47,147 nucleotides of DNA, from the NCBI GenBank assembly GCA_026394815.1, contig JAPLZX010000006.1:1-47147 (forward strand), given 5' to 3'. Of the stretch, positions 2,648-21,398 are shown piece by piece. Under the pieces are notes generated by a model, which was given only the letters and a program-made list of their open reading frames with translations, made no database searches and was not told where the DNA came from. The DNA is from Candidatus Zambryskiibacteriota bacterium. Its GTDB lineage: Bacteria > Patescibacteriota > Minisyncoccia > Phycocordibacterales > DATDWN01. Numbering within the stretch: position 1 is the stretch's first letter; each line of letters begins with the position of its first letter. Both the position numbers and the translations under genes were made by a program.

Positions 2648-3691
2648 ATGAAAAAAGCTTTAATCACAGGAATAACTGGTCAAGATGGATCATATTTGGC
2701 AGAACTTCTCTTGGAAAAGGGGTATGAGGTGCATGGTATTATTCGTCGTTCAAGTTCTTTTAACACTCATCGAATTGACCATATATATAGTGACCCGCAC
2801 AAAAAGAAACATATGCTTTACCTTCATTATGGCGATTTATCTGATGCGAGTAATTTAAATAGAATACTTGAAAAAGTAAAACCAGATGAAATATACCATC
2901 TGGCTGCCCAAAGTCATGTACGAGTTAGCTTTGACCTCCCAGAGTACACTGGAGATACTACCGGTTTGGGCGCCTTACGCATTCTTGATGCCATACGAGC
3001 ATCTGGAATAAAAACAAAATTTTATCAAGCTTCTTCGAGTGAAATGTTTGGTGAAGCAAAAGAAATACCCCTAAAAGAGACTAGTCCTTTCCATCCTCGC
3101 TCCCCCTATGGAGTTGCCAAAGTCTATGCATACTGGATTACAAGAAATTATAGAGAAAGTTACGGACTGTTTGCAGTAAACGGAATACTTTTTAATCATG
3201 AATCCCCTCGTCGTGGTGAGACCTTTGTCACAAGAAAAATTACAAGAGGATTATCTCGAATAAAACTTGGCCTTGAGAATAAATTGTATTTAGGAAATCT
3301 TGATGCAAAGAGAGATTGGGGTTATGCAAAAGATTACGTAGAGGGTATGTGGCGCATGCTCCAACAAAAAACACCTGATGATTATATTCTAGCTACAAAT
3401 GAAGCTCATACTGTCAAAGAGTTTGTAGAAGAAGTTGGAAAAATATTAGGTATGGATATAAAATGGAAAGGTAAAGGTATAAATGAAAAAGGAATAGACA
3501 AAAAAACAGGAAAAATTATCATTGAGGTCGATCCATTATATTTCCGTCCAGCCGAAGTGAATGTGCTTCTGGGTGACTACAGTAAAGCCAAGAAAAAATT
3601 GGGATGGAAACCAGAGGTCAAATTTAAAGAACTAATCAAAATAATGACTGAGCATGATTTCAAAAAAGAAAAAGATGAAAATAGAATCTAA
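2648..3691 (+). CDS. gmd: GDP-mannose 4,6-dehydratase
   Basis: N-terminus [50 protein letters not shown] (YxxxK) and [17 protein letters not shown] are canonical Gmd motifs. Length 347 aa. Confidence 0.95.
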
Positions 3692-4145
3692 ACATATTCC
3701 AGATGAATTATTTAAAGAAATAGTAAGCAACATGCCTATTTGTACAGTAGATATTGTTTTTTTTAATGAAAAAAAAGACAGGATATTTCTATGTAAAAGA
3801 GCAAATGAGCCTTTAAAAGGAGTATTTATGACAAACGGAGGTAGACTTTTTAAAAACGAGGAGTTGGAAGATTGCGCGATTCGACAAGTTAAAACAGAGC
3901 TTGGTATTTCTATAAACAAGAATCAATTGGTTTTTGGAGGGATTACAAACATGATAACAAACGCTTCTAAATTCGATGAGACAAATTATCATGCTATGGA
4001 TATTTTTTTTGGGTATATAATAAATGAGTCCACTCCAATAAAACTTGATAATCAGCACAGCGAGTCTAAATGGTTTTCTATATACGATGAGTCTCTACAC
4101 CTGTATGCAAAAAGAAGTATTAATATTTTAATACCAAAATTATGA
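3675..4145 (+). CDS. gmm: NUDIX hydrolase, GDP-mannose mannosyl hydrolase-like
   Basis: The pattern [13 protein letters not shown]...[39 protein letters not shown] matches the Gmm/WcaH layout, and the gene lies between gmd and fcl. Start chosen at the internal ATG 3675; the ORF is open from 3654. Confidence 0.75.
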
Positions 4146-5074
4146 AAAAAAATTCAAAAATATTTGTTGCCGGACACAAAGGATTAGTAGGTTCAGCAAT
4201 TTTACGAAAACTTCAAAAAGAAGGGTATAAAAATATTGTAACAAGAACTCATAAAGAACTTGATTTAATAAATGCACCAAAAGTGACAGAATTTTTTAAA
4301 AAAGAAAAAATAGAATATGTTTTTATGGCTGCGGCAAAAGTAGGAGGTATCATGGCTAATAAAAATTTCCCCGCCGAGATGATTTATCAAAATATAGAAG
4401 TCCAAAATAACATTATTCATAATTCATACCTGACTGGAGTTAAAAAATTACTCTTTTTAGGAAGTTCGTGCATTTATCCTCGCCTGGCCCCTCAACCTAT
4501 AAAAGAAGAGTATCTTCTCTCTGGTCTTCTAGAACCAACCAATCAAGCTTATGCTATAGCAAAGATTTCTGGAATTGTGATGTGCCAATCTTATAACAAA
4601 GAATATGGGACAAACTTTATTTCAGCCATGCCAACTAATCTCTATGGACCAAATGATAATTTCGATTATGAAAATTCTCATGTCTTCCCCGCTATGATAA
4701 GAAAATTCCATGATGCAAAAGAAAAAAAGGAGAAAAGTATAACATTTTGGGGAACAGGCACACCAAAAAGGGAATTTCTACATGTTGATGATGTTGCTTC
4801 TGCGAGTCTCTTTCTTATGCTAAATTATAACGATTCAGAAATAATAAATGTTGGAACAGGAGAAGATATTTCTATATTAGAACTTGTAAATAAAATGAAA
4901 AAAATAATTGGATATAATGGTAAAGTCATCTGGGATAAAGAAAAACCAGATGGAATGCCGAGAAAACTCCTTGATGTAAGTAAAATCCATAATCTTGGAT
5001 GGAAACACATCATAGATGTAGACCGTGGTATTACAGAAACTTATGAATGGTTTTCAAAAAATGTATCTAAATAA
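4142..5074 (+). CDS. fcl: GDP-L-fucose synthase (GDP-4-keto-6-deoxymannose 3,5-epimerase/4-reductase); a ColC-type colitose synthase cannot be excluded
   Basis: KIFVAGHKGLVGSAI, LGSSCIYP, YAIAKISG and PTNLYGPNDNF are typical Fcl/WcaG motifs. ATGA overlap with gmm. Confidence 0.88.
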   Translation: MKKNSKIFVAGHKGLVGSAILRKLQKEGYKNIVTRTHKELDLINAPKVTEFFKKEKIEYVFMAAAKVGGIMANKNFPAEMIYQNIEVQNNIIHNSYLTGVKKLLFLGSSCIYPRLAPQPIKEEYLLSGLLEPTNQAYAIAKISGIVMCQSYNKEYGTNFISAMPTNLYGPNDNFDYENSHVFPAMIRKFHDAKEKKEKSITFWGTGTPKREFLHVDDVASASLFLMLNYNDSEIINVGTGEDISILELVNKMKKIIGYNGKVIWDKEKPDGMPRKLLDVSKIHNLGWKHIIDVDRGITETYEWFSKNVSK

Positions 5075-5406: not shown

Positions 5407-6246
5407 ATGGAAAAAACACCAGAACAAACATATGTAACAATAATTAGACCTAAAAAGCTTTTTTCCATTCGTGATATTACTGAACTCTGGAAATATAAAG
5501 AGCTTATGTATTTTTTTACCTGGCGTGACCTCAAGGTACGCTATAAGCAAACATTTATAGGTATTGTTTGGGCAATTATCCAACCTTTTATTACGATGGT
5601 GGTTTTTTCTGTTTTCTTTGGGGGACTTGCAAAAATGCCGTCAGATGGAGTTCCCTATCCAATTTTTGTTTATGTTGGTCTTTTATTTTGGCAATTTTTC
5701 TCAAGCGCCCTTGGTGACACTAGTAATTGTTTAGTAGCAAACCAATCTGTCATTACAAAAGTTTATTTCCCCCGCTTAATACTCCCAATATCTTCGGTTT
5801 TTACAAAATTGGTTGATTTTGCAGTGGCAACTTTAATGCTAGTAGTTTTGATGTTTTACTATGGATATGTGCCTCACATATCTGGACTTTTAATACTCCC
5901 CCTACTTCTTTTCATTACATTTATGGCTTCGGTTGGATTAGGACTTGTTTTAGCATCTATAAATGTTAAATACCGAGACGTGAGATATGCTCTTCCATTT
6001 TTTATACAAATAATGCTATTTCTTACACCGGTTATTTATCCCGCCTCAATTGCGGGTAAGTACTCGTTTATTTTGGCCTTAAACCCAATGACAGGGGTAA
6101 TACAAAATGCTCGCGCCGCTTTACTTGGAACGGCGCCCATCAATTGGCTATTGATTTTAATTTCTTTTATTGCAACATTTGTCATTATGATTATTGGTGT
6201 GTATTTTTTTAAGAAAACAGAAAGATTTTTCGCCGACATCGTATAA
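5407..6246 (+). CDS. wzm: ABC-2 type polysaccharide/teichoic-acid export permease (Wzm/TagG-like)
   Basis: 279 aa, 6 TM helices. N-terminal motif ELWKYKELMYFFTWRDLKVRYKQTFIGIVWAIIQP is typical of Wzm/TagG permeases. Confidence 0.9.
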   Translation: MEKTPEQTYVTIIRPKKLFSIRDITELWKYKELMYFFTWRDLKVRYKQTFIGIVWAIIQPFITMVVFSVFFGGLAKMPSDGVPYPIFVYVGLLFWQFFSSALGDTSNCLVANQSVITKVYFPRLILPISSVFTKLVDFAVATLMLVVLMFYYGYVPHISGLLILPLLLFITFMASVGLGLVLASINVKYRDVRYALPFFIQIMLFLTPVIYPASIAGKYSFILALNPMTGVIQNARAALLGTAPINWLLILISFIATFVIMIIGVYFFKKTERFFADIV

Positions 6247-6258
6247 CATACGAAAATT

Positions 6259-7488
6259 ATGTCTAACCCAATAATTGAGATAAAAAACATAGGAAAGAAG
6301 TACAATATCACCCATCAAAGAGGTGGTTATGTTACCTTAAGAGAAACAATCATGAATGTGTTAAAATCACCACTTTCTTTTTTGAAAGCAAAAACCAAAG
6401 AAGAGTTCTGGGCGTTAAAAGATATTTCATTAAACATACAAAAGGGAGAGGTTATAGGAATCATAGGTAAAAACGGCTCAGGCAAATCAACTCTTCTCAA
6501 GATACTTTCACAAATTACACCACCAACAACTGGAGAAATAACATTACGAGGTAAGATTAGAAGTCTTTTAGAAGTTGGCACTGGTTTTCATCCAGAATTG
6601 ACAGGAAGAGAAAATATTTTTCTCAACGGTGCAATTCTTGGGATGACAAAAAAGGAAGTCGTTAAAAAATTTAATGAAATTGTAGAATTTTCAGGTATTG
6701 ATAAGTTCCTTGATACACCTGTCAAATATTACTCAAGTGGTATGTATGTTCGTCTTGCCTTCTCTGTCGCCGCCCACATGGAATCAGATATTTTAATAGT
6801 TGATGAAGTGTTGGCTGTAGGAGATGCAGAATTTCAAAAAAAATGTCTCGGCAAGATGAAAGAAATGTCCACAGAAGCGGGCCGGACAATCATACTTGTT
6901 AGTCACAACATGACTGCTATAGAGCAAATGTGTTCACGAGTTGTTTTATTAGAAAAAGGAAGGGCAACTAAAATCGGACCAACGATAGAAATCGTCAATG
7001 AATATTTGGACAAATTCTTAGAATTCGGTGACGGTGAAATAACCCTAACCAAAAAACCAGGAGTAGATATTTCATTTTCTAAAATTTCTATAACTAATGA
7101 AAAAAATGTAATAACAAACAATATTAATTATAAAGAAAATTTTTATATCAATTTAGAGTTAGATGTTTTTAAAGAAACAAAAGATGTTGATTTGGGTATT
7201 TATTTTAAAAATTCTCTAAACACGGACTTGGTTTTTTCATGTTTATCAGACAAATCAAATGGTCAACTGAAAACTTTCAAACCCGGGAGGTATAATTTTA
7301 AAGTAGAATTTTCAGGTGGTTTTTTAATGCAAGGTATTTATTCTATAAAAATTAGTGTGCACAACCCTGGAATTTTAACCATTGATTCAAGAGATGATGT
7401 TATTAGTTTTTCGATATTACCTCCATCTGGAAGACCTGCGTCAAGAGGTGGTGCAGGTTGTGTTTCTATACCAAATCGTTGGATATAA
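6259..7488 (+). CDS. wzt: ABC polysaccharide export ATPase (Wzt/TagH-like) with a C-terminal extension resembling the Wzt carbohydrate-binding domain
   Basis: Walker A GKNGSGKST, signature YSSGMYVRLAF, Walker B ILIVDEVLAVGD, then about 160 extra residues predicted to be beta-rich (ISFSKISITNEKN...YNFKVEFSG...IKISVHNPG). Confidence 0.9.
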   Translation: MSNPIIEIKNIGKKYNITHQRGGYVTLRETIMNVLKSPLSFLKAKTKEEFWALKDISLNIQKGEVIGIIGKNGSGKSTLLKILSQITPPTTGEITLRGKIRSLLEVGTGFHPELTGRENIFLNGAILGMTKKEVVKKFNEIVEFSGIDKFLDTPVKYYSSGMYVRLAFSVAAHMESDILIVDEVLAVGDAEFQKKCLGKMKEMSTEAGRTIILVSHNMTAIEQMCSRVVLLEKGRATKIGPTIEIVNEYLDKFLEFGDGEITLTKKPGVDISFSKISITNEKNVITNNINYKENFYINLELDVFKETKDVDLGIYFKNSLNTDLVFSCLSDKSNGQLKTFKPGRYNFKVEFSGGFLMQGIYSIKISVHNPGILTIDSRDDVISFSILPPSGRPASRGGAGCVSIPNRWI

Positions 7489-7501
7489 CAAGAGATTAAA
7501 A

Positions 7502-8862
7502 ATGACACAACAGATAGACAAACAGAATATAATAAAAAAAATAATAGGCAATGATTTTGTTTATTCCGAAACAATTTCTCCTTTATCAAATCTTTGCCAA
7601 TATCTGATAAATAAAAAAATTTCATCAAAGAAAGACTGGTTTATTTTTCATAACAAATTTTTGGAAGTTTTTATTGCTCAATACAAACCAACCATTGATC
7701 AATTAACATTTATTAGAGCAGTCTCATTAAACACAATTTTTAAAGACAATGGTTTCCCAAAAATTGGAAATTTTGCATCTGACGAGGTAGACAATATAAG
7801 ATTTGAACCAATTTTAAATAAAAACCTACTTTTAATAAATCGTGATTGTTTGCAAAACCTTATGAAAGAACCAGATGTGGAACTGAAAAAATTAGCTGTA
7901 ACTGAGTTAAATATTATAGAAAAAGAAATAGCTCGTATAGACAATATAATAAACAGAGTACCTGACATTTTAACTAAAGATTTATCTGGAGGATTGAAAA
8001 AAGTAAATGGTAAACCGAAAGTCACTGTAATAACCGCTTCATATAACTTGGCTTCGATGGTAGAAGAAACCATACGTTCTGTGGCAAACCAAAATTATGA
8101 CAGTTTTGAACATATTGTCATAGATGGTGCTTCAACTGACGGTTCAGTTGAAGTCCAGAGGATGCTTATTGGAAAGGTCTTAGACTAGCAAAAGGAGATT
8201 ACATTATGACATGTTATATATCAGATGGTTATTCTAATGTAGACTGGATAAGAAAATGTGCAGAGGCGTTGGATAAAAATAAAGATGTATCTCTGATTTG
8301 GGGCATACCTTGGAGCATAGATAGAAATAGCCACATGATAAATGCTAGATTTACAGAATTTGATTACACAGAACAACCTCAAAGAGAAGAGTTGTTTTAT
8401 TGTTGGATGAAAACAGGTTTAAGCGCAGTAGAAACTAATTTGTGTGTTAGAAAAGAAGTGTTGCTCGAGTGTTACCCCACCCTGAAAGAATGTGAAAAAG
8501 ATATTTTGGACTGGCAAGAATTTACATTTAGATTCAACTCCAGAGGATATTTAGCACTACATATACCAGTCATAGCAAATTATTCTCATATTGACCATGA
8601 AGGAAAATATATGATGAGACTTAAAAAAAGTGGAAAGTATAAAAGACAACTTGATACATATAATCTTAATATGAGTAATTATATAAAAAGTTTGGTTTTG
8701 GGTTCTCATATTCACAAATTCATTGATAGTCATGGAAATATCCTCCCAATAAAATTTGATAGAAAACGAGTAATCGTAGATTATATAAAAAATAAGATAA
8801 AGAAAAATAAAAAATATATTCAACCATCAAAGTATGTAGCATATGTTAAAAAACTGTGGTAA
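7502..8862 (+). pseudogene. GT2 glycosyltransferase with a ~175-aa N-terminal extension, split across two frames near 8150
   Basis: Frame 2 gives KVTVITASYNLASMVEETIRSVANQNYDSFEHIVIDGASTDGSVE and then stops at 8188. The expected continuation (SPEDAYWKGLRLAKGDYIMTCYISDGY...) is open in frame 1 from 8152 to 8862. Confidence 0.6.
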
Positions 8863-8871
8863 TTTAAGCCT

Positions 8872-9486
8872 ATGAAAAAATTACTGACAAAAAAAGAACT
8901 GATTGCGTTTGAAGAAGAAATTGCAGATTGCTTTAATAAAGCCATGATTAAGGCCCCCGTTCATCTTTATAACGGCAATGAGAATAATATGTTATCAGTA
9001 TTTAAACATATAAATAAAAATGATTGGGTATTATGTTCGTGGAGAAATCATTACCAATGTTTACTAAAGGGTGTACCAAAAAAACAATTAAAGACTGATA
9101 TCTTAGCTGGTCGTTCAATTTCTCTTTGTTATAAAAAATATAAAATTATATCTTCTGGTATTGTTGCAGGTGTTCTTCCTATAGCTGTGGGAATTGCCTT
9201 GGATATAAAAAACAAAAATAAAAGTAATAAGGTGTTTTGTTTTATGGGAGATATGACCTCTGAAACTGGTGTTGCACATGAGTGTATTAAATATTGTATT
9301 AATAAAAAATTACCTATACATTTTATTATTGAAGATAATAGTAAATCTGTTTGTACTATAACAAGAGAGGTGTGGGGTCTTAATAAATTAACCTATGAAG
9401 ACATAGTAAATAAATACATAACTTTTTATAAGTATGATGGAAGCAAGTATCCCCATGCAGGAAGCGGAAAAAGAATTCAATTTTAA
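8872..9486 (+). CDS. Truncated thiamine-diphosphate-dependent E1 alpha-like subunit
   Basis: 204 aa. PVHLYNGNE, WRNHYQCLLKG, SGIVAGVLPIAVGIAL and the TPP-binding pattern FMGDMTSETGVAHECIKYCINKKLPIHFIIEDNSKS align by eye with PdhA/E1-alpha. Confidence 0.7.
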   Translation: MKKLLTKKELIAFEEEIADCFNKAMIKAPVHLYNGNENNMLSVFKHINKNDWVLCSWRNHYQCLLKGVPKKQLKTDILAGRSISLCYKKYKIISSGIVAGVLPIAVGIALDIKNKNKSNKVFCFMGDMTSETGVAHECIKYCINKKLPIHFIIEDNSKSVCTITREVWGLNKLTYEDIVNKYITFYKYDGSKYPHAGSGKRIQF

Positions 9487-9501
9487 AATATAAAATATTA
9501 T

Positions 9502-10038
9502 ATGAAATATTTTGACGAATTAAAAAAATCAATGGAATGGTTGGCATCAAAGTCAGAAACCCTTTTTTTGGGACAAGCAGTTGAATATCCTGGTACCGCA
9601 ATGACAAACACATTGATAAACATACCAAAAAACAAATTACTTGAAATGCCTGTAGCTGAGGAAATGCAAATGGGAATTTCAATTGGATTAGCTGTAAATG
9701 GAACTGTCCCAATAAGTATCTACCCGAGATGGAATTTTTTATTATTAGCAACAAATCAGTTAGTTAATCATCTCGATAAAATGTCAACCTATTCAAAAGG
9801 TGAATTTACACCGAAAGTGATAATAAGAACGTCTATTGGTTCTGAAAGGCCTATTAATCCTCAAATTCAACACGTCGGAGATTATTCGGATGCATTTAAA
9901 TTAATGTTAAAAAATGTTGAAATTATAGTTTTAGATGAACCGGAACAAATACTACCAGCATATAAAAAAGCCTATCTGCGAAAAGATGGTAAATCAACAA
10001 TATTAGTTGAGTATGGTGATTATTATAACGAAAAATAA
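9502..10038 (+). CDS. Truncated E1 beta / transketolase pyrimidine-binding-domain-like subunit
   Basis: 178 aa. FLGQAVEYPGTAM...LLEMPVAEEMQMGISIGLAVNGTVPISIYPRWNFLLLATNQLVNHLDK resembles the N-terminal half of E1-beta. No C-terminal transketolase domain is present. Confidence 0.65.
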   Translation: MKYFDELKKSMEWLASKSETLFLGQAVEYPGTAMTNTLINIPKNKLLEMPVAEEMQMGISIGLAVNGTVPISIYPRWNFLLLATNQLVNHLDKMSTYSKGEFTPKVIIRTSIGSERPINPQIQHVGDYSDAFKLMLKNVEIIVLDEPEQILPAYKKAYLRKDGKSTILVEYGDYYNEK

Positions 10039-10056
10039 GAAACAGAAAATTAGAGC

Positions 10057-11097
10057 ATGAAAAAAGACACTATGGTATTAAAAGAAATGTTAGATAGGGA
10101 TGCTAAAAGAATTGCATCCAGCATAAATTTTCATAATTTATCAAATAAAAGCATATTGATAACCGGAGCTAATGGTTTGATTGGTATAAATTTTATAGCA
10201 TCACTGGTTGAAATAGCAACTAAAATCTCTGGAATTAAAATCTACTTAGTAATTCATTCATCCCTTTCTTTATTTTTATTGCCCTTTTTGAATGCTAGAA
10301 ATGTTTTTGTCTTTAAGGGTGACTTAACGGATGATCATTTTATTGAAACATTTCCTAATGTAGATATTATCATTCATACAGCAGGCTCTGGAATACCTAG
10401 TCAATTTTTAAATAATAAACTATCAACACTAAAAATAAACACCAAAACCACTCTAAAATTATTTGAAAAACTAAATATTGGCGGTAAATTTTTATTTATT
10501 AGTAGTAGTGATTTGTATAATGGATTAGATGCAGAAGTGTGTTCCGAGAATCAAATTGGGACAACTAATACAGACCACCCACGAGCATGTTACATAGAGG
10601 GTAAAAGGGTGGGAGAAACCATCTGTAATATATATCAGGAAATGGGGGTCGATGCTTATTCGGTTAGACTTTCATTAACTTATGGTCCAGGAACATCCTA
10701 CGACGACAGTAGGGTTTTACCATCTTTTATTCGCAAAGCTTTAGATGGGCAGATTGATTTACTTGATTCAGGTAAGGCTTCTAGAACATTTTGTTATATA
10801 TCAGATGCTATAGAGTTAATGTGGTTTGTTCTGCTTAATGGAAAGCATTGCTTATATAATATTGGGGGCAATGAAAAAATTGAAATTTGCAATCTAGCTG
10901 AGATGATCGGTAAAATCCTACATGTACCAGTAAACTATCCCGCAATTAACTCCGGTATAATGGGTGCTCCTCATAATGTTGAGATTGATATCAGTAGAAT
11001 TCTTCTAGAATCAAAAAAAAATAAATTTGTAAGTTTAAAGGAAGGATTAGCAAATACGATTAATTGGTTCAGACTATTAAAAAATATGAAGCATTAG
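10057..11097 (+). CDS. NAD-dependent sugar epimerase/dehydratase/reductase (extended SDR, UXS-like active-site context)
   Basis: Rossmann motif ILITGANGLIGINF and catalytic ACYIEGKRVGE (YxxxK, similar to the YDEGKR of UDP-glucuronate decarboxylases). Confidence 0.75.
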   Translation: MKKDTMVLKEMLDRDAKRIASSINFHNLSNKSILITGANGLIGINFIASLVEIATKISGIKIYLVIHSSLSLFLLPFLNARNVFVFKGDLTDDHFIETFPNVDIIIHTAGSGIPSQFLNNKLSTLKINTKTTLKLFEKLNIGGKFLFISSSDLYNGLDAEVCSENQIGTTNTDHPRACYIEGKRVGETICNIYQEMGVDAYSVRLSLTYGPGTSYDDSRVLPSFIRKALDGQIDLLDSGKASRTFCYISDAIELMWFVLLNGKHCLYNIGGNEKIEICNLAEMIGKILHVPVNYPAINSGIMGAPHNVEIDISRILLESKKNKFVSLKEGLANTINWFRLLKNMKH

Positions 11098-11146
11098 TAT
11101 GGGGGAGGGTAAAAATCAGATTATAAAATAACAATAAATTAATCAA

Positions 11147-12313
11147 ATGATAAAATTAATCAAATCAACTTTCAATAAAGAAAAGGCCACAAAAGACGCT
11201 TTGTGCAAATTCATAAAACAATCAAAGCAACTATCTATTGGTAAAATGTGCTCTGAATTTGAAAGTAAATTTTCTCGTTGGCAAGGAAGAAAATATTCTG
11301 TTATGTTCAACAGTGGAAGTTCTGCCAATCTCGCCTTAATTCAGGTTCTTATAAATTTAAAAAAAATAAAAGAGGAGGATAGTGTAGGATTTTCAGCTGT
11401 AACCTGGGCAACAAACATTATGCCTCTCATAAGCCTGAAACTTAATCCAATACCTATTGATATAGAACTTGAAACTTTAAACATCTCATCAAAAAAAGTT
11501 ATCGAGGCATACAAAAAAAATAAATTTAAGTTTTTGTTTATTACAAACGTTTTAGGATATTGCCACGATATAGATAATATAAAAGAATTCTGCAAAAAAA
11601 ATAACATATTACTTATTGAGGATAACTGTGAATCTTTGGGTTCGGAATATAAAAAAACCAAACTAGGAAACTTTAGTCTTGCTTCTACTTTTTCTTTTTA
11701 TGTTGGGCATCATTTATCAACCATAGAAGGCGGGATGGTCTGCACTGATGATTTAGAGATAGACACCATGCTTCGAATAGTTCGCTCTCACGGAATGGAT
11801 CGCCATCTATCCGAAAGTGAGCAAAAAAGATTACGGTTGGAATACAAAGTAGATGCATTTTATGGAAAATTCGCTTTTTACGACATAGGATACAATTTTC
11901 GCCCAACTGAAATAAATGGTTTTCTCGGGGTTAATCAATTACAATATCTTGATGAAATGGTAAGTAACCGTGAAAAAAATTATAAAAAACTTGAAAAAAT
12001 ATATCTGAATAATGATTTCATAAAAATTGAAACAACTGGTTTAACTAAAATTTCAAATTTTGCTTTCCCTCTCATATGTAAAACAAAAAATATCAAAGAA
12101 AAATATATGGATATCGCCAAAAAAACTGGAATTGAAATACGACCTATTGTTGCGGGTTGCATAAACAAACATGCTTTTTATAAAAAGCACGTCGCTACTA
12201 AACATAAATTACCAAATGCGGAAACTGTTCATGAACTAGGCTTCTATTTTGGAAATAACGCAGAAATGACCAGAGACGAAATTAACACTTTGGTAAGAGT
12301 TTTTTCAAAATAA
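11147..12313 (+). CDS. colD: DegT/DnrJ/EryC1-family PLP enzyme with His at the PLP-lysine position: GDP-4-keto-6-deoxy-D-mannose 3-dehydratase (ColD)-like
   Basis: KYSVMFNSGSSANLALI, LLIEDNCESLG, STFSFYVGHHLSTIEGGMVCTDDLEIDTMLRIVRSHGMDR, GYNFRPTEINGFLG and GIEIRPIVAG track my recollection of E. coli ColD. The codon where aminotransferases have Lys is CAT (11708-11710). Confidence 0.65.
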   Translation: MIKLIKSTFNKEKATKDALCKFIKQSKQLSIGKMCSEFESKFSRWQGRKYSVMFNSGSSANLALIQVLINLKKIKEEDSVGFSAVTWATNIMPLISLKLNPIPIDIELETLNISSKKVIEAYKKNKFKFLFITNVLGYCHDIDNIKEFCKKNNILLIEDNCESLGSEYKKTKLGNFSLASTFSFYVGHHLSTIEGGMVCTDDLEIDTMLRIVRSHGMDRHLSESEQKRLRLEYKVDAFYGKFAFYDIGYNFRPTEINGFLGVNQLQYLDEMVSNREKNYKKLEKIYLNNDFIKIETTGLTKISNFAFPLICKTKNIKEKYMDIAKKTGIEIRPIVAGCINKHAFYKKHVATKHKLPNAETVHELGFYFGNNAEMTRDEINTLVRVFSK

Positions 12314-12322
12314 ACACTTAAA

Positions 12323-13123
12323 ATGACATTCGTAGAAAAGATAAAAAAAATAATAGTTGATCCAAAAAAATATTGGAAAAACAGTAAAACTATAATGAAT
12401 TATTTTGGGAACTTTATAAAAAAAGTTTTGTTTATAAATAATATTCAGGAATGGCAAAAAAATAGAAATCAGATAAAATTTTATAAAAAATATATTATCA
12501 AAACAAACAAATTAATTTTTGATATCGGAGCAAATGTTGGTAAAAAGACTGACCTTTTTCTTAGACTTGAATATGTCGTAATAGTAGTCGAACCTCAATC
12601 CTTGATTGTAGCAGGTCTGCGTAAAAAATATCAAGATAATCCCAGAGTAATAGTAGAAGAATGTGGTATTGGGAAAGAAGAAGGAGAAGCTCAAATCAAT
12701 ATTTCCACAAAATACCCAGGGTTCTCTAGTTTCATTAAGGAGTGGCAAAAAGGAACAAAATATCATAGCTTTGAAAAAACGGAGAAAGTTAAATTGACCA
12801 CCCTTGATAAACTTATCAGTAAATATGGCCTACCAGATTTTTGTAAAATAGACGTTGAAGACTTCGAACATGAAGTTCTACTGGGACTATCGAGTAAAAT
12901 CCCAATGATAAATTTCGAATTTCACTCAAATAACAAGGAACAATTACTGTGGTGTTTGTCTAGATTGCAAACAATCGGCTATGATAGTTTTAACTTCGTG
13001 GTAGACGAAAATTCCATAATGTCTTCTGATATATGGTTGACTATAGATGAATTATTGACCAAGATAGAAACTCTTGAGAAAAATAGTAAAATTGTCATTT
13101 TGGGAGATGTATACGCAAAATAG
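12323..13123 (+). CDS. FkbM-family SAM-dependent methyltransferase
   Basis: IFDIGANVGKKTDLF...VVIVVEPQ...FCKIDVEDFEHEVLLG matches the FkbM pattern. Confidence 0.75.
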   Translation: MTFVEKIKKIIVDPKKYWKNSKTIMNYFGNFIKKVLFINNIQEWQKNRNQIKFYKKYIIKTNKLIFDIGANVGKKTDLFLRLEYVVIVVEPQSLIVAGLRKKYQDNPRVIVEECGIGKEEGEAQINISTKYPGFSSFIKEWQKGTKYHSFEKTEKVKLTTLDKLISKYGLPDFCKIDVEDFEHEVLLGLSSKIPMINFEFHSNNKEQLLWCLSRLQTIGYDSFNFVVDENSIMSSDIWLTIDELLTKIETLEKNSKIVILGDVYAK

Positions 13124-13169
13124 CATAATAAAGTAACTAAATTTAACATCAATAATATAGTTAAAACTT

Positions 13170-14486
13170 ATGAATCAAAACATATCTGTTGTGGGACTTG
13201 GTAAATTAGGAGCTTGTATGTTAGCTGTCTATGCGAGTAAAAAATATAGCGTCATCGGAGTGGATAAAAATCTTGATTATGTAAACTCTATAAATAATGG
13301 GGTTGCTCCGGTAGAAGAAACAGATTTGCAAAAATATATAACCAAAAACCTTAAGAGGATAAGAGCTACTAGAAATTATACTGAGGCAATAAGTAAAACA
13401 GAAATTACTTTTATAATAGTACCAACTCCAACAGATAAAACAGGAGGGTTTTCTGTGGAATATGTTATCAATGCATGTATAGATATTGGAAAAAATATAA
13501 AAAACAAAAATAAATACCATCTGGTCGTTTTAACCAGCACTGTATTACCCTTAGATTGTCACAAAAAAATTATTCCTGTTCTTGAAAAATACTCTGGAAA
13601 AACTTGTGGGGTAGACTTTGGTTTCTGCTATAGTCCAGAATTTATAGCAATAGGTTCTGTAATTCATAATCTACTTAACCCTGATTTCTTTTTGATTGGC
13701 CAATTTGATAAAAAATCTGGAGATATTTTGGAATCTTTTTATTCTACAACATGTAATAATAATTCAACAATAAAAAGAATGTCCATTCCTAATGCTGAGT
13801 TAACTAAGATTAGTTTGAACCATTTCATAACCATGAAAATTACTTATGCTAACATGTTAGCAGAAATTGCCGATAAATTACCTAGTGGAAATATAGATAT
13901 TATAACTGATGCTATTGGTAGTGATGTAAGAGTGGGGAAAAAATATCTAAAGGGTGGACTAGGATTTGGTGGCCCTTGTTTTCCTAGAGACAATAGAGCA
14001 TTCGTTTACATGGCTAAAAAAATAAAAATTAAGACTCCATTTGCCCAAATTACAGATAATTACAACAAGAGTATCGAGGAAAGAATGATTAAACTAATAC
14101 TGGAAAGATCAACACATAGTTCTAAAATAGGCATAATGGGATTAAGCTATAAACCAGATACTGGTTTTTGTGAGGAATCGCAAGGATTAAATATTGCCAA
14201 AAAACTAGCAACAATGGGTTATAAAATAAATGCTTTTGAAAGTAATGGTTTTAAACATGCCAAAATATTGTTGGGTAAATCCGTTAATTACAAAAAGAAT
14301 ATTAATGAATTTGTAAATAATTCAGATGTTATTTTTTTAACTAATTTTGACAAAAAAAATCAGAATCTTAAGAAATACTGTAAGAAAAAAACAATTATCA
14401 TTGATCCTTGGCGACAGTTTTCTAATAATGATTTCCCAAAAACGATATTGTATAGACCAATAGGTATTAATGATCTAAAAATATAA
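13170..14486 (+). CDS. Nucleotide-sugar 6-dehydrogenase (UDP-glucose/GDP-mannose dehydrogenase family); substrate unknown
   Basis: N-terminal ISVVGLGKLGACMLAV Rossmann motif and catalytic-Cys motif GLGFGGPCFPRDN. Length 438 aa. Confidence 0.85.
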   Translation: MNQNISVVGLGKLGACMLAVYASKKYSVIGVDKNLDYVNSINNGVAPVEETDLQKYITKNLKRIRATRNYTEAISKTEITFIIVPTPTDKTGGFSVEYVINACIDIGKNIKNKNKYHLVVLTSTVLPLDCHKKIIPVLEKYSGKTCGVDFGFCYSPEFIAIGSVIHNLLNPDFFLIGQFDKKSGDILESFYSTTCNNNSTIKRMSIPNAELTKISLNHFITMKITYANMLAEIADKLPSGNIDIITDAIGSDVRVGKKYLKGGLGFGGPCFPRDNRAFVYMAKKIKIKTPFAQITDNYNKSIEERMIKLILERSTHSSKIGIMGLSYKPDTGFCEESQGLNIAKKLATMGYKINAFESNGFKHAKILLGKSVNYKKNINEFVNNSDVIFLTNFDKKNQNLKKYCKKKTIIIDPWRQFSNNDFPKTILYRPIGINDLKI

Positions 14487-15398: not shown

Positions 15399-16412
15399 AT
15401 GTTACAATTTAATAAAATGACTAAAACAAAAATTAAAAAAGCCTTGGTTCTCGGAGCGGGCGGTTTTATTGGAAGCCATTTAGTGAAGGATTTGAAAAAA
15501 AGAGGATACTTTGTAAAAGGGGTTGATCTCAAAAAACCTGAGTATAGTAAAAGTGGAGCTGATGAATTTGTTATTGGAGATCTCCGAGATCAGAAAATGT
15601 GTAAAAAAGTAATTGATCGGCCTTTTGATGAGGTTTATCAACTCGCAGCAGACATGGGTGGTGCCGGATATATTTTTAGCGGAGAACATGATGCTGATGT
15701 TATGCATAATTCTGCAACAATAAATTTAAATGTATCCTATTATGGACAAAAAGCTGGTATAAAAAAAATCTTTTACTCTTCATCAGCATGTATATATCCA
15801 GCATATAACCAGAAAGACCCCGACAATCCAAATTGTGCCGAAAAATCGGCTTATCCAGCTGCACCAGATAGTGAGTATGGTTGGGAAAAACTTTTTAGTG
15901 AACGACTGTATCTTTCATTTAGAAGAAATTATGGATTGGATGTACGTATTGCCCGTTTCCATAACATCTTTGGCCCAGAGGGAACATGGCGAGGCGGAAA
16001 AGAAAAAGCACCAGCTGCAATTTGTAGAAAAGTTGCTGAAGCAAAAGATGGGGGCACAATAGAAATGTGGGGAGATGGCAAACAGACTAGGTCTTTCCTT
16101 TATATTGATGAGTGTCTTAAGGGAATAAGAAAATTAATGGATAGTAAAAATTTTTTCGGCCCTGTAAATATAGGGTCTGATGAAATGGTAACAATAAATA
16201 AACTGGCAGAAATCGCTATGAAAATTGGCGACAAGAAGTTGTTCATAAAACACCTCCCAGGACCACTTGGGGTTAGGGGTAGAAACTCAGATAATAAATT
16301 AATAAAAAAATCTCTCGGTTGGAAACCAGAAATGAGGTTAGAAGAAGGAATTAAGAAAACATATGAATGGATTGAAAACCAAGTAAAAATAAAAGCCTTT
16401 AATGTAAAATGA
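15399..16412 (+). CDS. GDP-mannose 3,5-epimerase-like SDR
   Basis: LAADMGGAGYIF, YSSSACIYP, EYGWEKLFSE and ARFHNIFGPEGTWRGGKEKAPAAICRKV closely parallel plant/bacterial GME (GRFHNIYGPFGTWKGGREKAPAAFCRK). The start could instead be the ATG at 15417. Confidence 0.8.
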   Translation: MLQFNKMTKTKIKKALVLGAGGFIGSHLVKDLKKRGYFVKGVDLKKPEYSKSGADEFVIGDLRDQKMCKKVIDRPFDEVYQLAADMGGAGYIFSGEHDADVMHNSATINLNVSYYGQKAGIKKIFYSSSACIYPAYNQKDPDNPNCAEKSAYPAAPDSEYGWEKLFSERLYLSFRRNYGLDVRIARFHNIFGPEGTWRGGKEKAPAAICRKVAEAKDGGTIEMWGDGKQTRSFLYIDECLKGIRKLMDSKNFFGPVNIGSDEMVTINKLAEIAMKIGDKKLFIKHLPGPLGVRGRNSDNKLIKKSLGWKPEMRLEEGIKKTYEWIENQVKIKAFNVK

Positions 16413-19011: not shown

Positions 19012-19844
19012 ATGAATCAGAAAGTAAGAAAATTCATAAAAAACCTTATTCCTCCAGTTATTTTATCATTATATAAATCCCCTGTCCCAAAATATGGGTA
19101 CTTTGGTGATTATAAAACTTGGGAAGAAGTAGAAAAAATATCTACAGGATATTCGGGTGATGAAATAATAAACAAGGTCAGATTATCTGCACTCAAAGTA
19201 AAAAATGGTGAAGCAGTATATGAACGTGACTCGGTCTTGTTTTCAAAAGTAGAAATATCGTGGCCACTTCTGGCAGGGCTTTTGTATGTAGCTAGCCAAA
19301 ACGACAACTCTCTAGAACTAGTTGATTTTGGTGGTGCTTTAGGCACTAGCTATTACCAAAATAAAAAATTCTTAAGTCATCTTAAATCACTTCATTGGCA
19401 TATAGTAGAACAAGATAAATTTGTAAATATTGGTAAAAAAGAATTTATCAACAATGTTTTGGATTTTTATTACACTAAAGAACTAAAAAATCTAGTTGAT
19501 ATAAAAAACCACAGGTTATGATAGTCTCTAGTTCTCTTCAATTTTTACCAGATCCAATTACCTTTATTGAAAATCTTGATGGATTAGATATTCCCTATTT
19601 AATTTTTGATAAAATACCATTTTTTGTAGAACCTAATATGCAAAATCGTTTAATGTTACAAAAAGTACCCCCTAAAATTTATGACGCAAGCTATCCGGTG
19701 TGGATTTTTGGAGAAAATTTATTCATAAAAGAGATGATTAAAAATTATGAGTTGGTTGATGATTTCAACGCATATAATGGATATGTAGAAAAAATAGAAA
19801 ACAGCCAAATGCATTACAGAGGATTTATTTTTAAAAAGAAATAG
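19012..19844 (+). pseudogene. TIGR04325/LIC12133-type putative methyltransferase split into two ORFs at an A6 tract
   Basis: 19012-19521 carries YGYFGDYKTWEEVEKISTGY...VDFGGALGTSYYQNKKFL...WHIVEQ. 19518-19844 continues with IVSSSLQFLPDP. Frame 2 is open from 19500, and one extra A in AAAAAA (19503-19508) would fuse the two ORFs. Confidence 0.6.
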
Positions 19845-21398
19845 ATGAATAAAACCAAAAATAAAAACGGTCCTGTTGTGCTTGTTACTAAAGATATTTC
19901 GTATACATTCCCTTTTGGGTATGCATATCTCGCAGGTTATTTAATAGAAAAAGGAGAAGAAGTAATTGTTTTATTTAGACCAAAAAAAGCATTTGATTAT
20001 AAAAAATTTGTCCAAGATATCATTGAACTTAAACCAGTATTAGTTGGATTTGGAACACTTTATCCAGACCTTTATCCAATCAAAAAACTAATCGAACTTT
20101 TAAATTTGGCTGGTAGAAATTTTCCAATTGTTATTGGTGGTCAAATGGTAACTCCAACACCTGAATTTGCTGTAAAAATAACTGGAGCTGATTTTGGGGT
20201 TGTCGGCGAAGGAGAAATTATCGTGGACGAATTAGTTAAGACTTTGCGAAAAAATAAAGACCCTCACCAAGTTAAGGGTGTCATAATAAACGAGAATGGT
20301 AAATTATCTTTTACTGAGTCTGGGGATTTTATAAAATACATGGCAAAACTACCTAAAATTCCATATACACTATTTCCTTCCAATAAATGGTTAGATATTG
20401 GACGATTTTATGTTGATATAGCTCAACCTCACTGGCGATATAATGATAAAGTTGTGGCCATTCATGGTGGCAGAGGATGCCCTTTTAATTGTAATTTTTG
20501 CTACCACCATAGTTTGTCCCGATATCGCTCTATAAATGATATGTTTGAAGAAATAAAAGTATTGATAAAAAAATATGACGCTAATATGTTGTATTTTGGG
20601 GATGATTTAGTATTAGCAACTCCAACCAGGGTTAAAGAGCTAACACAGGCAATAAGACAACTTGATAAAAAAGTTGAGTATTCGGTTTCTTGCCGCTTCG
20701 ATATATTAGATAGAATTAGTGATGAAATGCTACGAGAAATGAAAGAAACTGGTTGTCGAATTATGGGATTAGGCATTGAATCGGGGTCACAAAGAATACT
20801 TGATATAATTGATAAAAGAATTACAACTGAACAAATTATTAAAGGCATGCGACGCCTAAAAGATGCCGGTATTCTCCCTACAGTGAGTATAATGGTTGGA
20901 CAATACACTGAAACCGTTGAAGATGTACAGAAATCAATAGACTTAATGCTAGAAACCCTAAATTACAATAAAAATGTTAATTATGCTTTTACTATTTGTA
21001 CCCCATTTCCTGGTACCAAGTTATATAACGTTGCTTTGGAGAAAAAATTAATCAAAGATGATTTTGATTTTTATAAAAAATTCGATCCTGATAAAGAAAT
21101 AGGAGGTTTATCTGTTAATCTTTCAGCTATGAATGATAAAGAAGTTGTAGTTATGCATAGAAAAATAAGTGATATATATTTACAAAGAAAAAAAGATTTG
21201 ATTGGTAGAAAAGTAATGCTAGTAGAAGCTACTCGTCATTTTGTATATAGAGTTTATAATAAAATTACTAAAACAATAATAGACAAACTCCCAGAAAAAT
21301 CAGTATTTATATTAATTAAAAAATTGTATCACAATAGCCACAACGCAATTCAATTTTGTCTAGACAGATTTAGACTTTATTTGTTAGATGTGAGATAA
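19845..21398 (+). CDS. B12-binding-domain radical SAM protein (class B radical SAM, methyltransferase-like)
   Basis: N-terminal Rossmann-like B12-binding region (PVLVGFGTLY...IVIGGQMVT) followed by GGRGCPFNCNFCYHH (CX3CX2C, codons 20478-20501). Length 517 aa. Confidence 0.85.
   Translation: MNKTKNKNGPVVLVTKDISYTFPFGYAYLAGYLIEKGEEVIVLFRPKKAFDYKKFVQDIIELKPVLVGFGTLYPDLYPIKKLIELLNLAGRNFPIVIGGQMVTPTPEFAVKITGADFGVVGEGEIIVDELVKTLRKNKDPHQVKGVIINENGKLSFTESGDFIKYMAKLPKIPYTLFPSNKWLDIGRFYVDIAQPHWRYNDKVVAIHGGRGCPFNCNFCYHHSLSRYRSINDMFEEIKVLIKKYDANMLYFGDDLVLATPTRVKELTQAIRQLDKKVEYSVSCRFDILDRISDEMLREMKETGCRIMGLGIESGSQRILDIIDKRITTEQIIKGMRRLKDAGILPTVSIMVGQYTETVEDVQKSIDLMLETLNYNKNVNYAFTICTPFPGTKLYNVALEKKLIKDDFDFYKKFDPDKEIGGLSVNLSAMNDKEVVVMHRKISDIYLQRKKDLIGRKVMLVEATRHFVYRVYNKITKTIIDKLPEKSVFILIKKLYHNSHNAIQFCLDRFRLYLLDVR

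Follow-up and report, generated by a model that had tools for sequence, protein, structure and literature searches.

Mini E1 pair: a conserved half-size E1-type thiamine diphosphate enzyme linked to ColD-type dehydratases in bacterial and phage sugar clusters, with a predicted role in sugar C-branching

A 47,147-nucleotide contig of a Candidatus Zambryskiibacteriota bacterium (GenBank accession number JAPLZX010000006.1; assembly GCA_026394815.1), referred to here at its full length as the window, carries a glycan cluster that includes a block of five open reading frames (ORFs) at positions 8872 to 13123. The coordinates of the five ORFs in the initial annotation, made from the sequence alone, were correct; all lie on the + strand and are separated by intergenic gaps of 9 to 49 bp. 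The first two encode the subject of this study, the mini E1 pair: a 204-amino-acid (aa) E1-alpha-like thiamine diphosphate (ThDP)-binding (PP) subunit (8872..9486; Pfam E1_dh, E value 1.5e−12) and a 178-aa E1-beta-like pyrimidine-binding (Pyr) subunit (9502..10038; Transket_pyr, 7e−5; PDH E1-beta subfamily PRK09212, 1e−9). They are followed by a short-chain dehydrogenase/reductase (SDR) of the extended type, 346 aa long and related to UDP-glucuronate decarboxylase (UXS) (10057..11097), a 388-aa ColD-type pyridoxal/pyridoxamine phosphate-dependent 3-dehydratase (11147..12313; DegT, 7e−61), and a 266-aa FkbM-family methyltransferase (12323..13123). Along the + strand the genes run gmd, a Gmm-like NUDIX gene, an Fcl-like SDR, Wzm, Wzt, a family 2 glycosyltransferase (GT2), E1-alpha, E1-beta, the SDR, and the DegT-family ColD gene, continuing with FkbM, an NDP-sugar 6-dehydrogenase, GT11, GDP-mannose 3,5-epimerase, GT10, and more glycosyltransferases.

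The hallmark motifs previously quoted for the two E1-like ORFs were found in their translations, and Pfam, NCBIfam, and AlphaFold2 (AF2) models searched with Foldseek all agreed with that assignment. The E1_dh match of E1-alpha spans profile positions 8 to 168 of 300, and each mini subunit covers about half of the curated E1 profiles; the family profile of mini E1-alpha matched human E1-alpha (9e−22). The AF2 model of E1-alpha (pLDDT, 86.7) had its best Foldseek matches in human and Geobacillus pyruvate dehydrogenase (PDH) E1-alpha, with TM scores of 0.71 by query length and 0.41 by target length, and was also placed on E1-alpha of branched-chain 2-oxoacid dehydrogenase (BCKDH). For the E1-beta model (pLDDT, 87.9) only the N-terminal Pyr domain of E1-beta was matched (TM score of 0.80 to 0.85 by query and ∼0.46 by target length), and mini E1-beta therefore lacks the C-terminal domain; the 178-aa sequence ends after the Pyr domain, and no Transketolase_C match was found in it. 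The C-terminal domain of E1-beta is the part that docks E2 (PDB 1W85).

The residues expected of an E1-type active site are largely retained. E1-alpha carries the Mg/diphosphate cofactor motif as GDM...EDN (GD(M/G)...E(D/N)N in the family, with G126 and N156 invariant), together with an invariant His31 and an invariant C-terminal YPHxGxG (PH-G-G) motif. In E1-beta, the catalytic Glu (PVAEE) aligned with that of canonical E1-beta, and a QH motif is invariant. Judged by motif resemblance, two invariant histidines probably correspond to the E1 active-site histidines. The YPHxGxG motif may be the equivalent of the YRxxGHS His loop of E1-alpha; the sequence-profile alignment to E1-alpha stops short of the alpha C terminus.

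The initial annotation regarded the pair as truncated, a description that does not hold. E1-alpha homologues number in the thousands, nearly all of 203 to 206 aa, with 68 to 87% identity among the top 120, whose sources include Lutibacter, Margulisiibacteriota, Elusimicrobia, Ignavibacteriaceae, Proteobacteria, and Tara Oceans entries. An NCBI protein assigned to a Candidatus Zambryskibacteria metagenome-assembled genome is 100% identical to E1-alpha. E1-beta homologues follow the same pattern, with a modal length of 178 aa, and across phyla the pair retains 60 to 87% identity at lengths of ∼204 and 178 aa. The pair is not truncated, its two lengths being the modal ones in a very large conserved family; on sequence grounds it is an intact, strongly constrained enzyme of a fixed-length family. 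The two ORFs could otherwise be read as decayed fragments (pseudogenes) of full-length E1 genes, given that canonical subunits are about twice as long and that frameshifts affect two further genes of the window. This reading is effectively refuted by conservation, as 204 and 178 aa are the family mode in thousands of sequences at 60 to 87% identity, every motif is preserved, and the structure predictions give compact folds with high confidence.

The closest sequences and folds to the mini pair are those of the heterotetrameric (alpha2beta2) E1 enzymes (PDH, BCKDH, and acetoin dehydrogenase), which likewise place PP and Pyr domains on separate chains in the same order, and with which the mini pair shares the ThDP/Mg motif, the catalytic Glu, and probably both active-site histidines. 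Since the top sequence and fold matches are PDH and BCKDH E1 subunits and homologues are automatically annotated as "pyruvate dehydrogenase E1," the pair might be a genuine E1 in reduced form, serving a pyruvate, 2-oxoacid, or acetoin dehydrogenase whose E2 and E3 are encoded elsewhere, and might lie in a glycan cluster by coincidence. We consider this very improbable. E1-alpha scored 88 bits against the PDH E1-alpha model TIGR03182 (cutoff, 394) and E1-beta 38 bits against NF006667 (cutoff, 321), the beta subunit has no E2-binding domain, and the family is always found within sugar clusters and also in T4-like phages. No E2, E3, or lipoyl domain was detected in Pfam scans of the 47-kb window (one of which comprised 25 families), no E2, E3, or lipoyl hallmark motif was present in any of its six frames, and neither E2 nor E3 was seen in those related loci that had been annotated, consistent with the earlier remark that such partners are missing nearby. 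The scores far under the curated cutoffs, the missing E2-binding domain, and the existence of fused phage forms thus argue that the pair is not a central-metabolism E1, as the initial annotation had proposed. The comparison with PDH E1 that it had suggested gave matches at the level of the fold and a weak profile match but no curated family membership. The pair is, in our assessment, fairly probably a minimal E1-type ThDP enzyme made up of one PP and one Pyr domain, without dehydrogenase-complex partners.

In size, the pair is similar to the small split ThDP decarboxylases, namely, sulfopyruvate decarboxylase ComDE, phosphonopyruvate decarboxylase, and AzcB/AzcC, which also consist of two chains of ∼170 to 200 aa with PP and Pyr domains, and AzcBC was among the Foldseek fold matches of mini E1-beta. 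However, those enzymes belong to the decarboxylase superfamily (TPP_enzyme_N/C) and have the opposite domain order, whereas the mini pair is of the E1/transketolase type; its TPP_enzyme_C match was only 0.0042, below the cutoff, and it matches E1_dh and Transket_pyr instead. No phosphoenolpyruvate (PEP) mutase or sulfonate genes lie near the mini pair. A phosphonate or sulfonate decarboxylase (Ppd/ComDE-like) was therefore rejected on the basis of the E1-type domain order, the hidden Markov model matches, and the lack of PEP mutase genes in annotated neighborhoods.

The family is broadly distributed. At 50% clustering, E1-alpha was represented by 97 clusters with E values of ≤1e−30, and matches in a set of one genome per species included Actinomycetota, Elusimicrobia, Pelagibacteraceae, SAR116, and Chthoniobacterales. 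A scan of genome contigs with one query sequence identified seven loci, all from metagenome-assembled or single-amplified genomes, with no cultured carrier of a known glycan structure among them. A PLSDB plasmid search returned only E1-alpha proteins of canonical length at ≤32% identity; one match from Azospirillum was rejected as a mini pair, as a 327-aa alpha is followed by a 343-aa beta. Coxiella CBU_0692/0693, "pyruvate dehydrogenases" belonging to a set of horizontally acquired genes (PMC5423948), are candidate relatives. Natural alpha-beta fusions were identified in proteins P0150, P0216, and P0236, in gp190 of cyanophage P-TIM68, and in phrog_34187; the two window proteins match the two halves of this single PHROG (function unknown), E1-beta being the C-terminal half. 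N-terminal fusions to unrelated modules were also observed, to a LAGLIDADG-like homing-endonuclease region (P0171), a kinase-like domain (P0221), and a Cys-rich region (P0159).

Family members are abundant in phages. Of 600 candidates listed in a scan of IMG/VR, at least 582 were confirmed as family members, and the cultured cyanophages P-TIM68 and S-SM2 encode the fused form in a sugar cluster, where it is annotated as a "transketolase central region-containing protein." The IMG/VR contig L110 is clearly T4-like, with a T4 scaffold protein, gp23 capsid protein, UvsW, and gp47/46-like proteins. Between its uvsW and gp47/46 genes lies a six-gene insert (8494-14213) encoding a B12-radical S-adenosylmethionine (SAM) protein, E1-alpha, E1-beta, an HddA-like GHMP kinase, a ColD-like protein, and an SDR, and the stop codon of the radical-SAM gene overlaps the start of E1-alpha. 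The phage markers of L110 are common to ∼15 to 20 further loci (in the range L103 to L171). Radical-SAM genes adjoining E1-alpha are ∼47% identical to each other; the window has a B12-radical-SAM gene of its own (19845-21398), which was rejected as an orthologue of the cassette gene because it shares ≤27% identity with the E1-alpha-adjacent genes. Three IMG/VR phage contigs (L148, L154, and L155) each carry two different mini pairs, ∼50% and ∼60% identical to that of the window, and each pair has a DegT-family neighbor of its own. Given its cross-phylum distribution and its abundance in phages, the pair is no oddity of a small AT-rich genome.

To describe the gene neighborhoods, 171 loci were dereplicated at 90% E1-alpha identity with ≥5 kb of flank required on each side, giving 58 loci besides the window; the sample is skewed to phage contigs and to E1-alpha sequences of >40% identity. 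E1-beta followed E1-alpha in 58/58 loci. This invariable adjacency and the existence of natural fusions indicate that alpha and beta act together. A ColD-like DegT gene (≥30% identical to that of the window) was found near E1-alpha in 43 of the 58 loci, on the same strand as the pair in 42 of these 43, directly after E1-beta in 12 loci and with one gene between in ∼16. The DegT cluster linked to the cassette has His at the Schiff-base position in 99 of 106 sequences, and the few with Lys are unrelated aminotransferases. The pair is thus genomically tied to the His-type ColD dehydratase. B12-radical SAM genes were present in 36/58 loci, usually as the first gene upstream of E1-alpha and often overlapping it, and HddA-like and RfaE-like kinases were frequent neighbors. 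Gmd (≥40% identical) was found in 11/58 loci, an orthologue of the SDR of the window in 4/58, and FkbM and the 6-dehydrogenase in none (0/58 each). Synteny of the five-gene block, which the initial annotation had suggested checking, therefore holds for the association of E1-alpha, E1-beta, and ColD but not for the block as a whole, and FkbM and the 6-dehydrogenase are not conserved partners of the pair.

The predicted ColD-like dehydratase proved to be well founded. Against PDB, the DegT protein matched ColD at 1.2e−56, followed by RfbH/E1 at 2.9e−38, with aminotransferases no better than 6e−28, and its length is ColD-like. The first His of its GHH motif (SHH in ColD) aligned with ColD His188, which replaces the Schiff-base Lys; the correspondence is visible because the PDB mutants H188K and H188N (2r0t and 3b8x) differ at exactly that column. 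Its closest homologues (70 to 81% identity) carry the names Zambryskibacteria, Parcubacteria, and Patescibacteria. It is only 37 to 39% identical to the ColD proteins of loci L176, L178, and L005, yet those are still of the His type, and the E1-alpha and E1-beta proteins of the same three loci are 85 to 87% identical to those of the window. The ColD slot is thus preserved despite a change of lineage, as two different ColD lineages sit beside closely related E1 pairs.

Close orthologues of the window ColD were found in several contexts. Locus L183 (ColD, 81% identity) has an operon of an SDR, an Fcl-like gene (63%), ColD, a Gmm-like NUDIX gene, mini E1-alpha (68%), mini E1-beta (70%), an SDR, and glycosyltransferases. 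Locus L184 (ColD, 77%) is syntenic with the window, sharing Wzm (81%), Wzt (70%), the 6-dehydrogenase (67%), GT11, and, downstream of ColD, FkbM-family genes. In the slot of the window's pair and SDR, which here lies between Wzt and ColD, it carries a Zn-dependent alcohol dehydrogenase (Zn-ADH), a full-length E1-alpha, and an E1-beta-type gene that is broken by a run of N. The Zn-ADH lies directly upstream of the E1 pair, and no orthologue of the 346-aa SDR is present; the E1-alpha has 319 aa, scores 271 bits against PDH E1-alpha (below the cutoff), and is 29% identical to mini alpha. The contig of P0397 (ColD, 79%), which has many gene families in common with the window, lists Wzm, Wzt, FkbM, an aminotransferase, a 617-aa protein with TPP_enzyme_N/M/C domains, two SDRs, ColD, GT10, GT2, an FkbM-like gene, and GT11. 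Loci L181, L182, L185, and L186 have gmd, fcl-like, nudix, or adjacent SDR genes but no ThDP enzyme and look like plain colitose-type loci. Three ThDP architectures alternating beside one ColD orthologue group looks like non-orthologous displacement of a single pathway step.

This pattern can be set against known branching enzymes. YerE transfers a pyruvate-derived two-carbon (C2) unit onto CDP-3,6-dideoxy-4-ketoglucose (PMC4753412, PMC12247030), and YerF reduces the product. E1-type alpha/beta pairs, namely, AviB1/B2 of avilamycin, Pau11/12 of paulomycin, the aldgamycin pair, and KbDH of kibdelomycin, place C2 units on keto sugars, which then undergo ketoreduction or other modification (PMC4753412, PMC12247030). 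For KbDH, transfer of a pyruvate-derived C2 unit to a keto sugar has been demonstrated in vitro (PMC4753412, PMC12247030). Like these actinomycete "alpha-KADH2" pairs (AviB1/AviB2, Pau11/Pau12, the aldgamycin pair, and KbDH-alpha/beta), the mini pair is a two-subunit E1-type ThDP enzyme in a deoxysugar cluster without E2 or E3, a likeness that for AviB1/B2, Pau11/12, and KbDH is by description rather than by sequence, and L184 carries a full-length E1 pair of that type next to an orthologue of the window ColD. The mini subunits differ in having only ∼60% and ∼55% of the canonical length, with alpha lacking one beta-alpha unit and the C-terminal region and beta lacking the whole C-terminal domain; they are also found not in antibiotic clusters but in phages and in the surface-glycan clusters of many phyla, and their partner is ColD-type. 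The yersiniose pathway follows the same logic of 4,6-dehydration, 3-deoxygenation, ThDP-dependent C2 addition at C-4, and reduction to yield a branched 3,6-dideoxy surface sugar, and the P0397 contig has a YerE-type protein (by its Pfam labels) beside a 79% orthologue of the window ColD. However, YerE is a single-chain, FAD-binding member of the decarboxylase (acetolactate synthase) superfamily, and the mini pair is split and of the E1/transketolase type; the substrate of YerE is CDP-linked and produced by the Fe-S enzyme E1 (RfbH) and E3, whereas the window has a ColD-type dehydratase in a GDP context. The earlier appeal to YerE and AviB1/B2 logic gains from these loci, in which ColD orthologues adjoin either a full-length E1 pair with Zn-ADH (L184) or a YerE-type enzyme (P0397). 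Overall, the alternation of three ThDP enzymes with an oxidoreductase at ColD supports a pathway in which the ColD product is C-branched in a thiamine-dependent step and then undergoes ketoreduction.

The nucleotide linkage is indicated by neighboring genes. The gmd gene (2648..3691, + strand) is genuine (TIGR01472, 582 bits; cutoff, 415) and lies 5.2 kb upstream of the pair on the same strand, in agreement with the ∼5 kb first reported; Gmd probably supplies ColD with its 4-keto-6-deoxy substrate. The NUDIX hydrolase gene (3654..4145, + strand; PRK15434, 2.6e−14), resembling GDP-mannose mannosyl hydrolase (Gmm), marks a GDP-sugar context; its counterpart lies between ColD and E1-alpha in L183 and after ColD in L001. 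Genes of the gmd, Gmm-like NUDIX, or fcl type are common to the window, L183, and L185, and gmd adjoins the ColD clade of the window in L181, L182, and L185, the orthologues in L181 and L182 being 83% and 62% identical. A GDP-mannose-derived context for this ColD clade is thus supported. The GDP-linked 3,6-dideoxyhexose of the initial annotation fares well in this respect (the L183 operon; gmd in L181, L182, and L185), but a pentose-series acceptor, discussed below, is a live alternative.

In the model that we favor, with moderate confidence, the mini E1 pair adds a pyruvate-derived C2 branch to C-4 of the 4-keto-3-deoxy product of ColD. Donor, acceptor, branch position, reduction, and methylation are all predictions. 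The pair would decarboxylate a 2-oxo acid, most likely pyruvate, to a hydroxyethyl-ThDP carbanion, and the C2 unit would pass not to lipoamide but to the C-4 carbonyl of the nucleotide-linked 4-keto-3-deoxy sugar formed by the adjacent ColD. The acceptor here would most likely be GDP-4-keto-3,6-dideoxymannose, which Gmd and ColD would form in turn from GDP-mannose. The product would be a 4-C-acetyl branched sugar, which a neighboring oxidoreductase (in the window, the UXS-like SDR) would probably reduce to the 1-hydroxyethyl form, and FkbM may O-methylate the sugar before its entry into a surface glycan exported by Wzm/Wzt.

Several observations weigh against this model. All functions assigned to the family are predicted from sequence and context. 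No ColD gene lies within 6 to 10 kb in about one-quarter of the loci, and ColD is absent from most loci in which E1-alpha is <50% identical to that of the window. The B12-radical-SAM enzyme and heptose-type kinases of the phage cassettes are not explained by the model, and the YerE-type assignment in P0397 derives from the Pfam labels of a gene list. The SDR is more like a decarboxylase (UXS) than a ketoreductase, and the 6-dehydrogenase in the same operon fits another acceptor. Finally, Fcl-like genes in several cassettes could simply complete GDP-colitose or GDP-fucose, leaving the E1 pair with an unrelated role.

This last point bears on the comparison with the GDP-colitose pathway (Gmd, ColD, and ColC), of which the window has a genuine Gmd, a His-dehydratase of ColD length, and an Fcl/ColC-like SDR nearby (4142..5074, + strand; GDP-L-fucose synthase model NF047922, 480 bits, slightly below the cutoff of 500), with Fcl orthologues (52 to 63%) lying within the cassettes of L003, L005, L176, and L183. 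ColD and the Fcl/ColC-like reductase may accordingly make an ordinary, colitose-type GDP-3,6-dideoxyhexose while the pair and its oxidoreductase run some other ThDP reaction, such as a DXS- or transketolase-like chain extension of an aldose or sugar phosphate, a reaction with another donor such as 2-oxoglutarate, or addition at another position or to another sugar. Besides the Fcl-like genes, such a role would account for 4 of 8 contexts of the window's ColD clade having no ThDP enzyme at all, for distant members (P-TIM68; E1-alpha of 40 to 50% identity) that lack ColD and lie beside kinases, heptose genes, and Zn-ADH, for the HddA-like and RfaE-like kinases common near the pair, and for the weak family matches to DXS and transketolase. 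We nevertheless regard it as doubtful, since ColD lies close beside the pair on the same strand, three ThDP architectures swap beside one ColD orthologue group, and the window cassette has no sugar kinase. The window adds the ThDP pair and UXS-like SDR immediately upstream of ColD, which suggests that the 4-keto intermediate is diverted and not simply reduced.

The SDR raises the question of the acceptor. It had been taken for a generic reductase, but its top PDB match, human UXS1 (1.6e−30), is ten orders of magnitude ahead of the next. The motif YIEGKRVGE is kept, the UXS motif STSE reads SSSD here (so that the catalytic residue is still acidic) and SSSE in L003, and all NCBIfam scores are below the cutoff. 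It may either reduce the carbonyl of the new branch, in a YerF-like step, or generate the 4-keto sugar. Orthologues (73 to 76%) follow E1-beta in L176, L178, and L005 and are limited to the closest clade, being found in L176, L178, and L183 in addition to the four loci of the sample. The 438-aa 6-dehydrogenase (13170..14486, + strand; TIGR03026, 300 bits) is closest in PDB to GDP-mannose 6-dehydrogenase (AlgD, 2.6e−56), followed by UDP-glucose dehydrogenase (6e−50). Its product may be a hexuronate used by the UXS-like SDR or in another residue of the glycan.

Because the SDR is UXS-like and the 6-dehydrogenase is of the GDP-mannose type, a eurekanate-like route via a 4-keto-pentose is possible in the window. 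The same ThDP-dependent branching would then act on a nucleotide-linked 4-keto-pentose: the 6-dehydrogenase would yield GDP-mannuronate or UDP-glucuronate, the UXS-like SDR would decarboxylate it, ColD may 3-deoxygenate it, and the pair would add an acetyl branch, as proposed for eurekanate in avilamycin and everninomicin. The solved relative and retained UXS motifs of the SDR agree with this route, as do the 6-dehydrogenase in the same operon, its 67% orthologue at the same position in L184, 6-dehydrogenases near the pair in P-TIM68 and L172, and the precedent of a UDP-glucuronate decarboxylase with AviB1/B2 (PMC10338323, PMC4753412). The 6-dehydrogenase is, however, rare near the E1 pair elsewhere. 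Loci with an SDR orthologue (L001, L003, L005, L135, L142, L056, L176, L178, and L183) have no 6-dehydrogenase within reach and instead carry fcl-like, nudix, or gmd genes, the E1 pair of L184 goes with a Zn-ADH and not a UXS-like SDR, and the known ColD substrate is a 6-deoxyhexose. A pentose acceptor therefore seems unlikely to us, somewhat more so than a separate ThDP reaction beside colitose synthesis, and branching of the 4-keto-3,6-dideoxyhexose is the reading kept below.

Export and further modification can be read from the remaining genes. The Wzm/Wzt ABC exporter (5407..7488, + strand; ABC2_membrane, and ABC_tran with Wzt_C, the C-terminal glycan-binding domain on Wzt) suggests how a glycan bearing the sugar would be exported, and Wzm/Wzt genes lie immediately upstream of the cassette in L005, L176, L178, and L184. 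FkbM passes its curated cutoff (TIGR01444, 86.2 bits; cutoff, 37.7; Pfam Methyltransf_21, 1.2e−12), as the initial annotation had it, and probably O-methylates the sugar or glycan; FkbM-family genes without BLAST similarity to it lie after ColD in L184 and are also found on the P0397 contig. An SDR at 15399-16412, between GT11 and the GT10 "fucosyltransferase," is a GDP-mannose 3,5-epimerase (1e−99 to plant GME structures), which suggests use of GDP-L-galactose or GDP-L-gulose; a 62% identical homologue is present in cyanophage P-TIM68, in the cluster of its fused E1 gene. On the − strand, an O-antigen-ligase-family (Wzy_C) gene (1368-2561) occurs together with Wzm/Wzt (Wzt_C) in a bacterium of the candidate phyla radiation (CPR). 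CPR bacteria are generally described as lacking an outer membrane, and the cluster may glycosylate a protein or cell-wall polymer instead of lipopolysaccharide (LPS). The window also holds a pilin-like N_methyl protein and two PMT_2 genes.

Two genes of the cluster appear frameshifted. The GT2 gene just upstream of E1-alpha (8015-8781; ORFs 7382-8188 and 8206-8862) is split near 8155-8161, such that residues 32 to 78 of a 362-aa homologue from L056 match frame 2 and residues 101 to 310 match frame 1; it is either a pseudogene or an assembly error. A TIGR04325-family methyltransferase is likewise found in two overlapping ORFs (19012-19521 and 19518-19844, covering profile positions 2 to 123 and 131 to 234), the second apparent frameshift. 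A promoter and terminator scan of the window gave no signal above shuffled expectation. The nearest relatives of E1-alpha, E1-beta, and the SDR (73 to 87%) are in other phyla, whereas the closest genes to the adjacent ColD and to Wzm, the O-antigen-ligase-like gene (1368-2561), and gmd are from Parcubacteria. Given these differing origins, the E1/SDR module looks like a horizontally acquired insert in a native colitose-type locus; there was no discontinuity in GC content between 8872-11097 and 11147-12313.

In accessible publications, C-branching is described with enzymes of the YerE type for LPS sugars and with E1-type pairs of full length for sugars of antibiotics, and Gram-negative LPS pathways are said in one paper to use YerE, "unlike gram positive bacteria" (PMC4753412). 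A survey of pelagimyophages noted "LPS-related" and "radical SAM" cassettes with no mention of a mini E1 enzyme (PMC7029224). In the accessible literature, no description was found of a half-size E1 pair, its link to ColD, its presence in phages, or a ThDP/ColD/radical-SAM cassette, and no curated family in Pfam, NCBIfam, or the PHROGs annotation names the mini pair. The interest of the pair lies mainly in its size, spread, and testability.

More tentatively, the mini pair could found an unrecognized family of minimal ThDP carboligases (∼380 residues) that has spread horizontally through glycan loci of bacteria from many phyla and through T4-like phages of marine and fresh waters, in which its translation is coupled to that of a B12-radical-SAM enzyme, and that would make chemically undescribed C-branched deoxysugars. 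Having few free hydroxyls, the branched 3,6-dideoxy sugar could be a chain-terminating cap in Wzm/Wzt loci, read by the C-terminal domain of Wzt, and phages may use such sugars to remodel the host surface.

If correct, the proposed function would apply to a large family of thousands of members, now labeled "hypothetical," "pyruvate dehydrogenase E1," or "transketolase central region," that includes auxiliary genes of cyanophages and other T4-like phage contigs. Mini E1 genes would then no longer be misread as energy metabolism in metagenomic and viral "auxiliary metabolic gene" surveys. The pair would represent a third, much smaller enzyme solution for C-branched sugars beside the YerE type and the full-length E1 type and, as a compact two-subunit carboligase forming tertiary alcohols, would be of interest for biocatalysis. 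Branched sugars so far unknown would also be indicated on the surfaces of uncultured bacteria, CPR/Parcubacteria among them, and in marine cells infected by phages.

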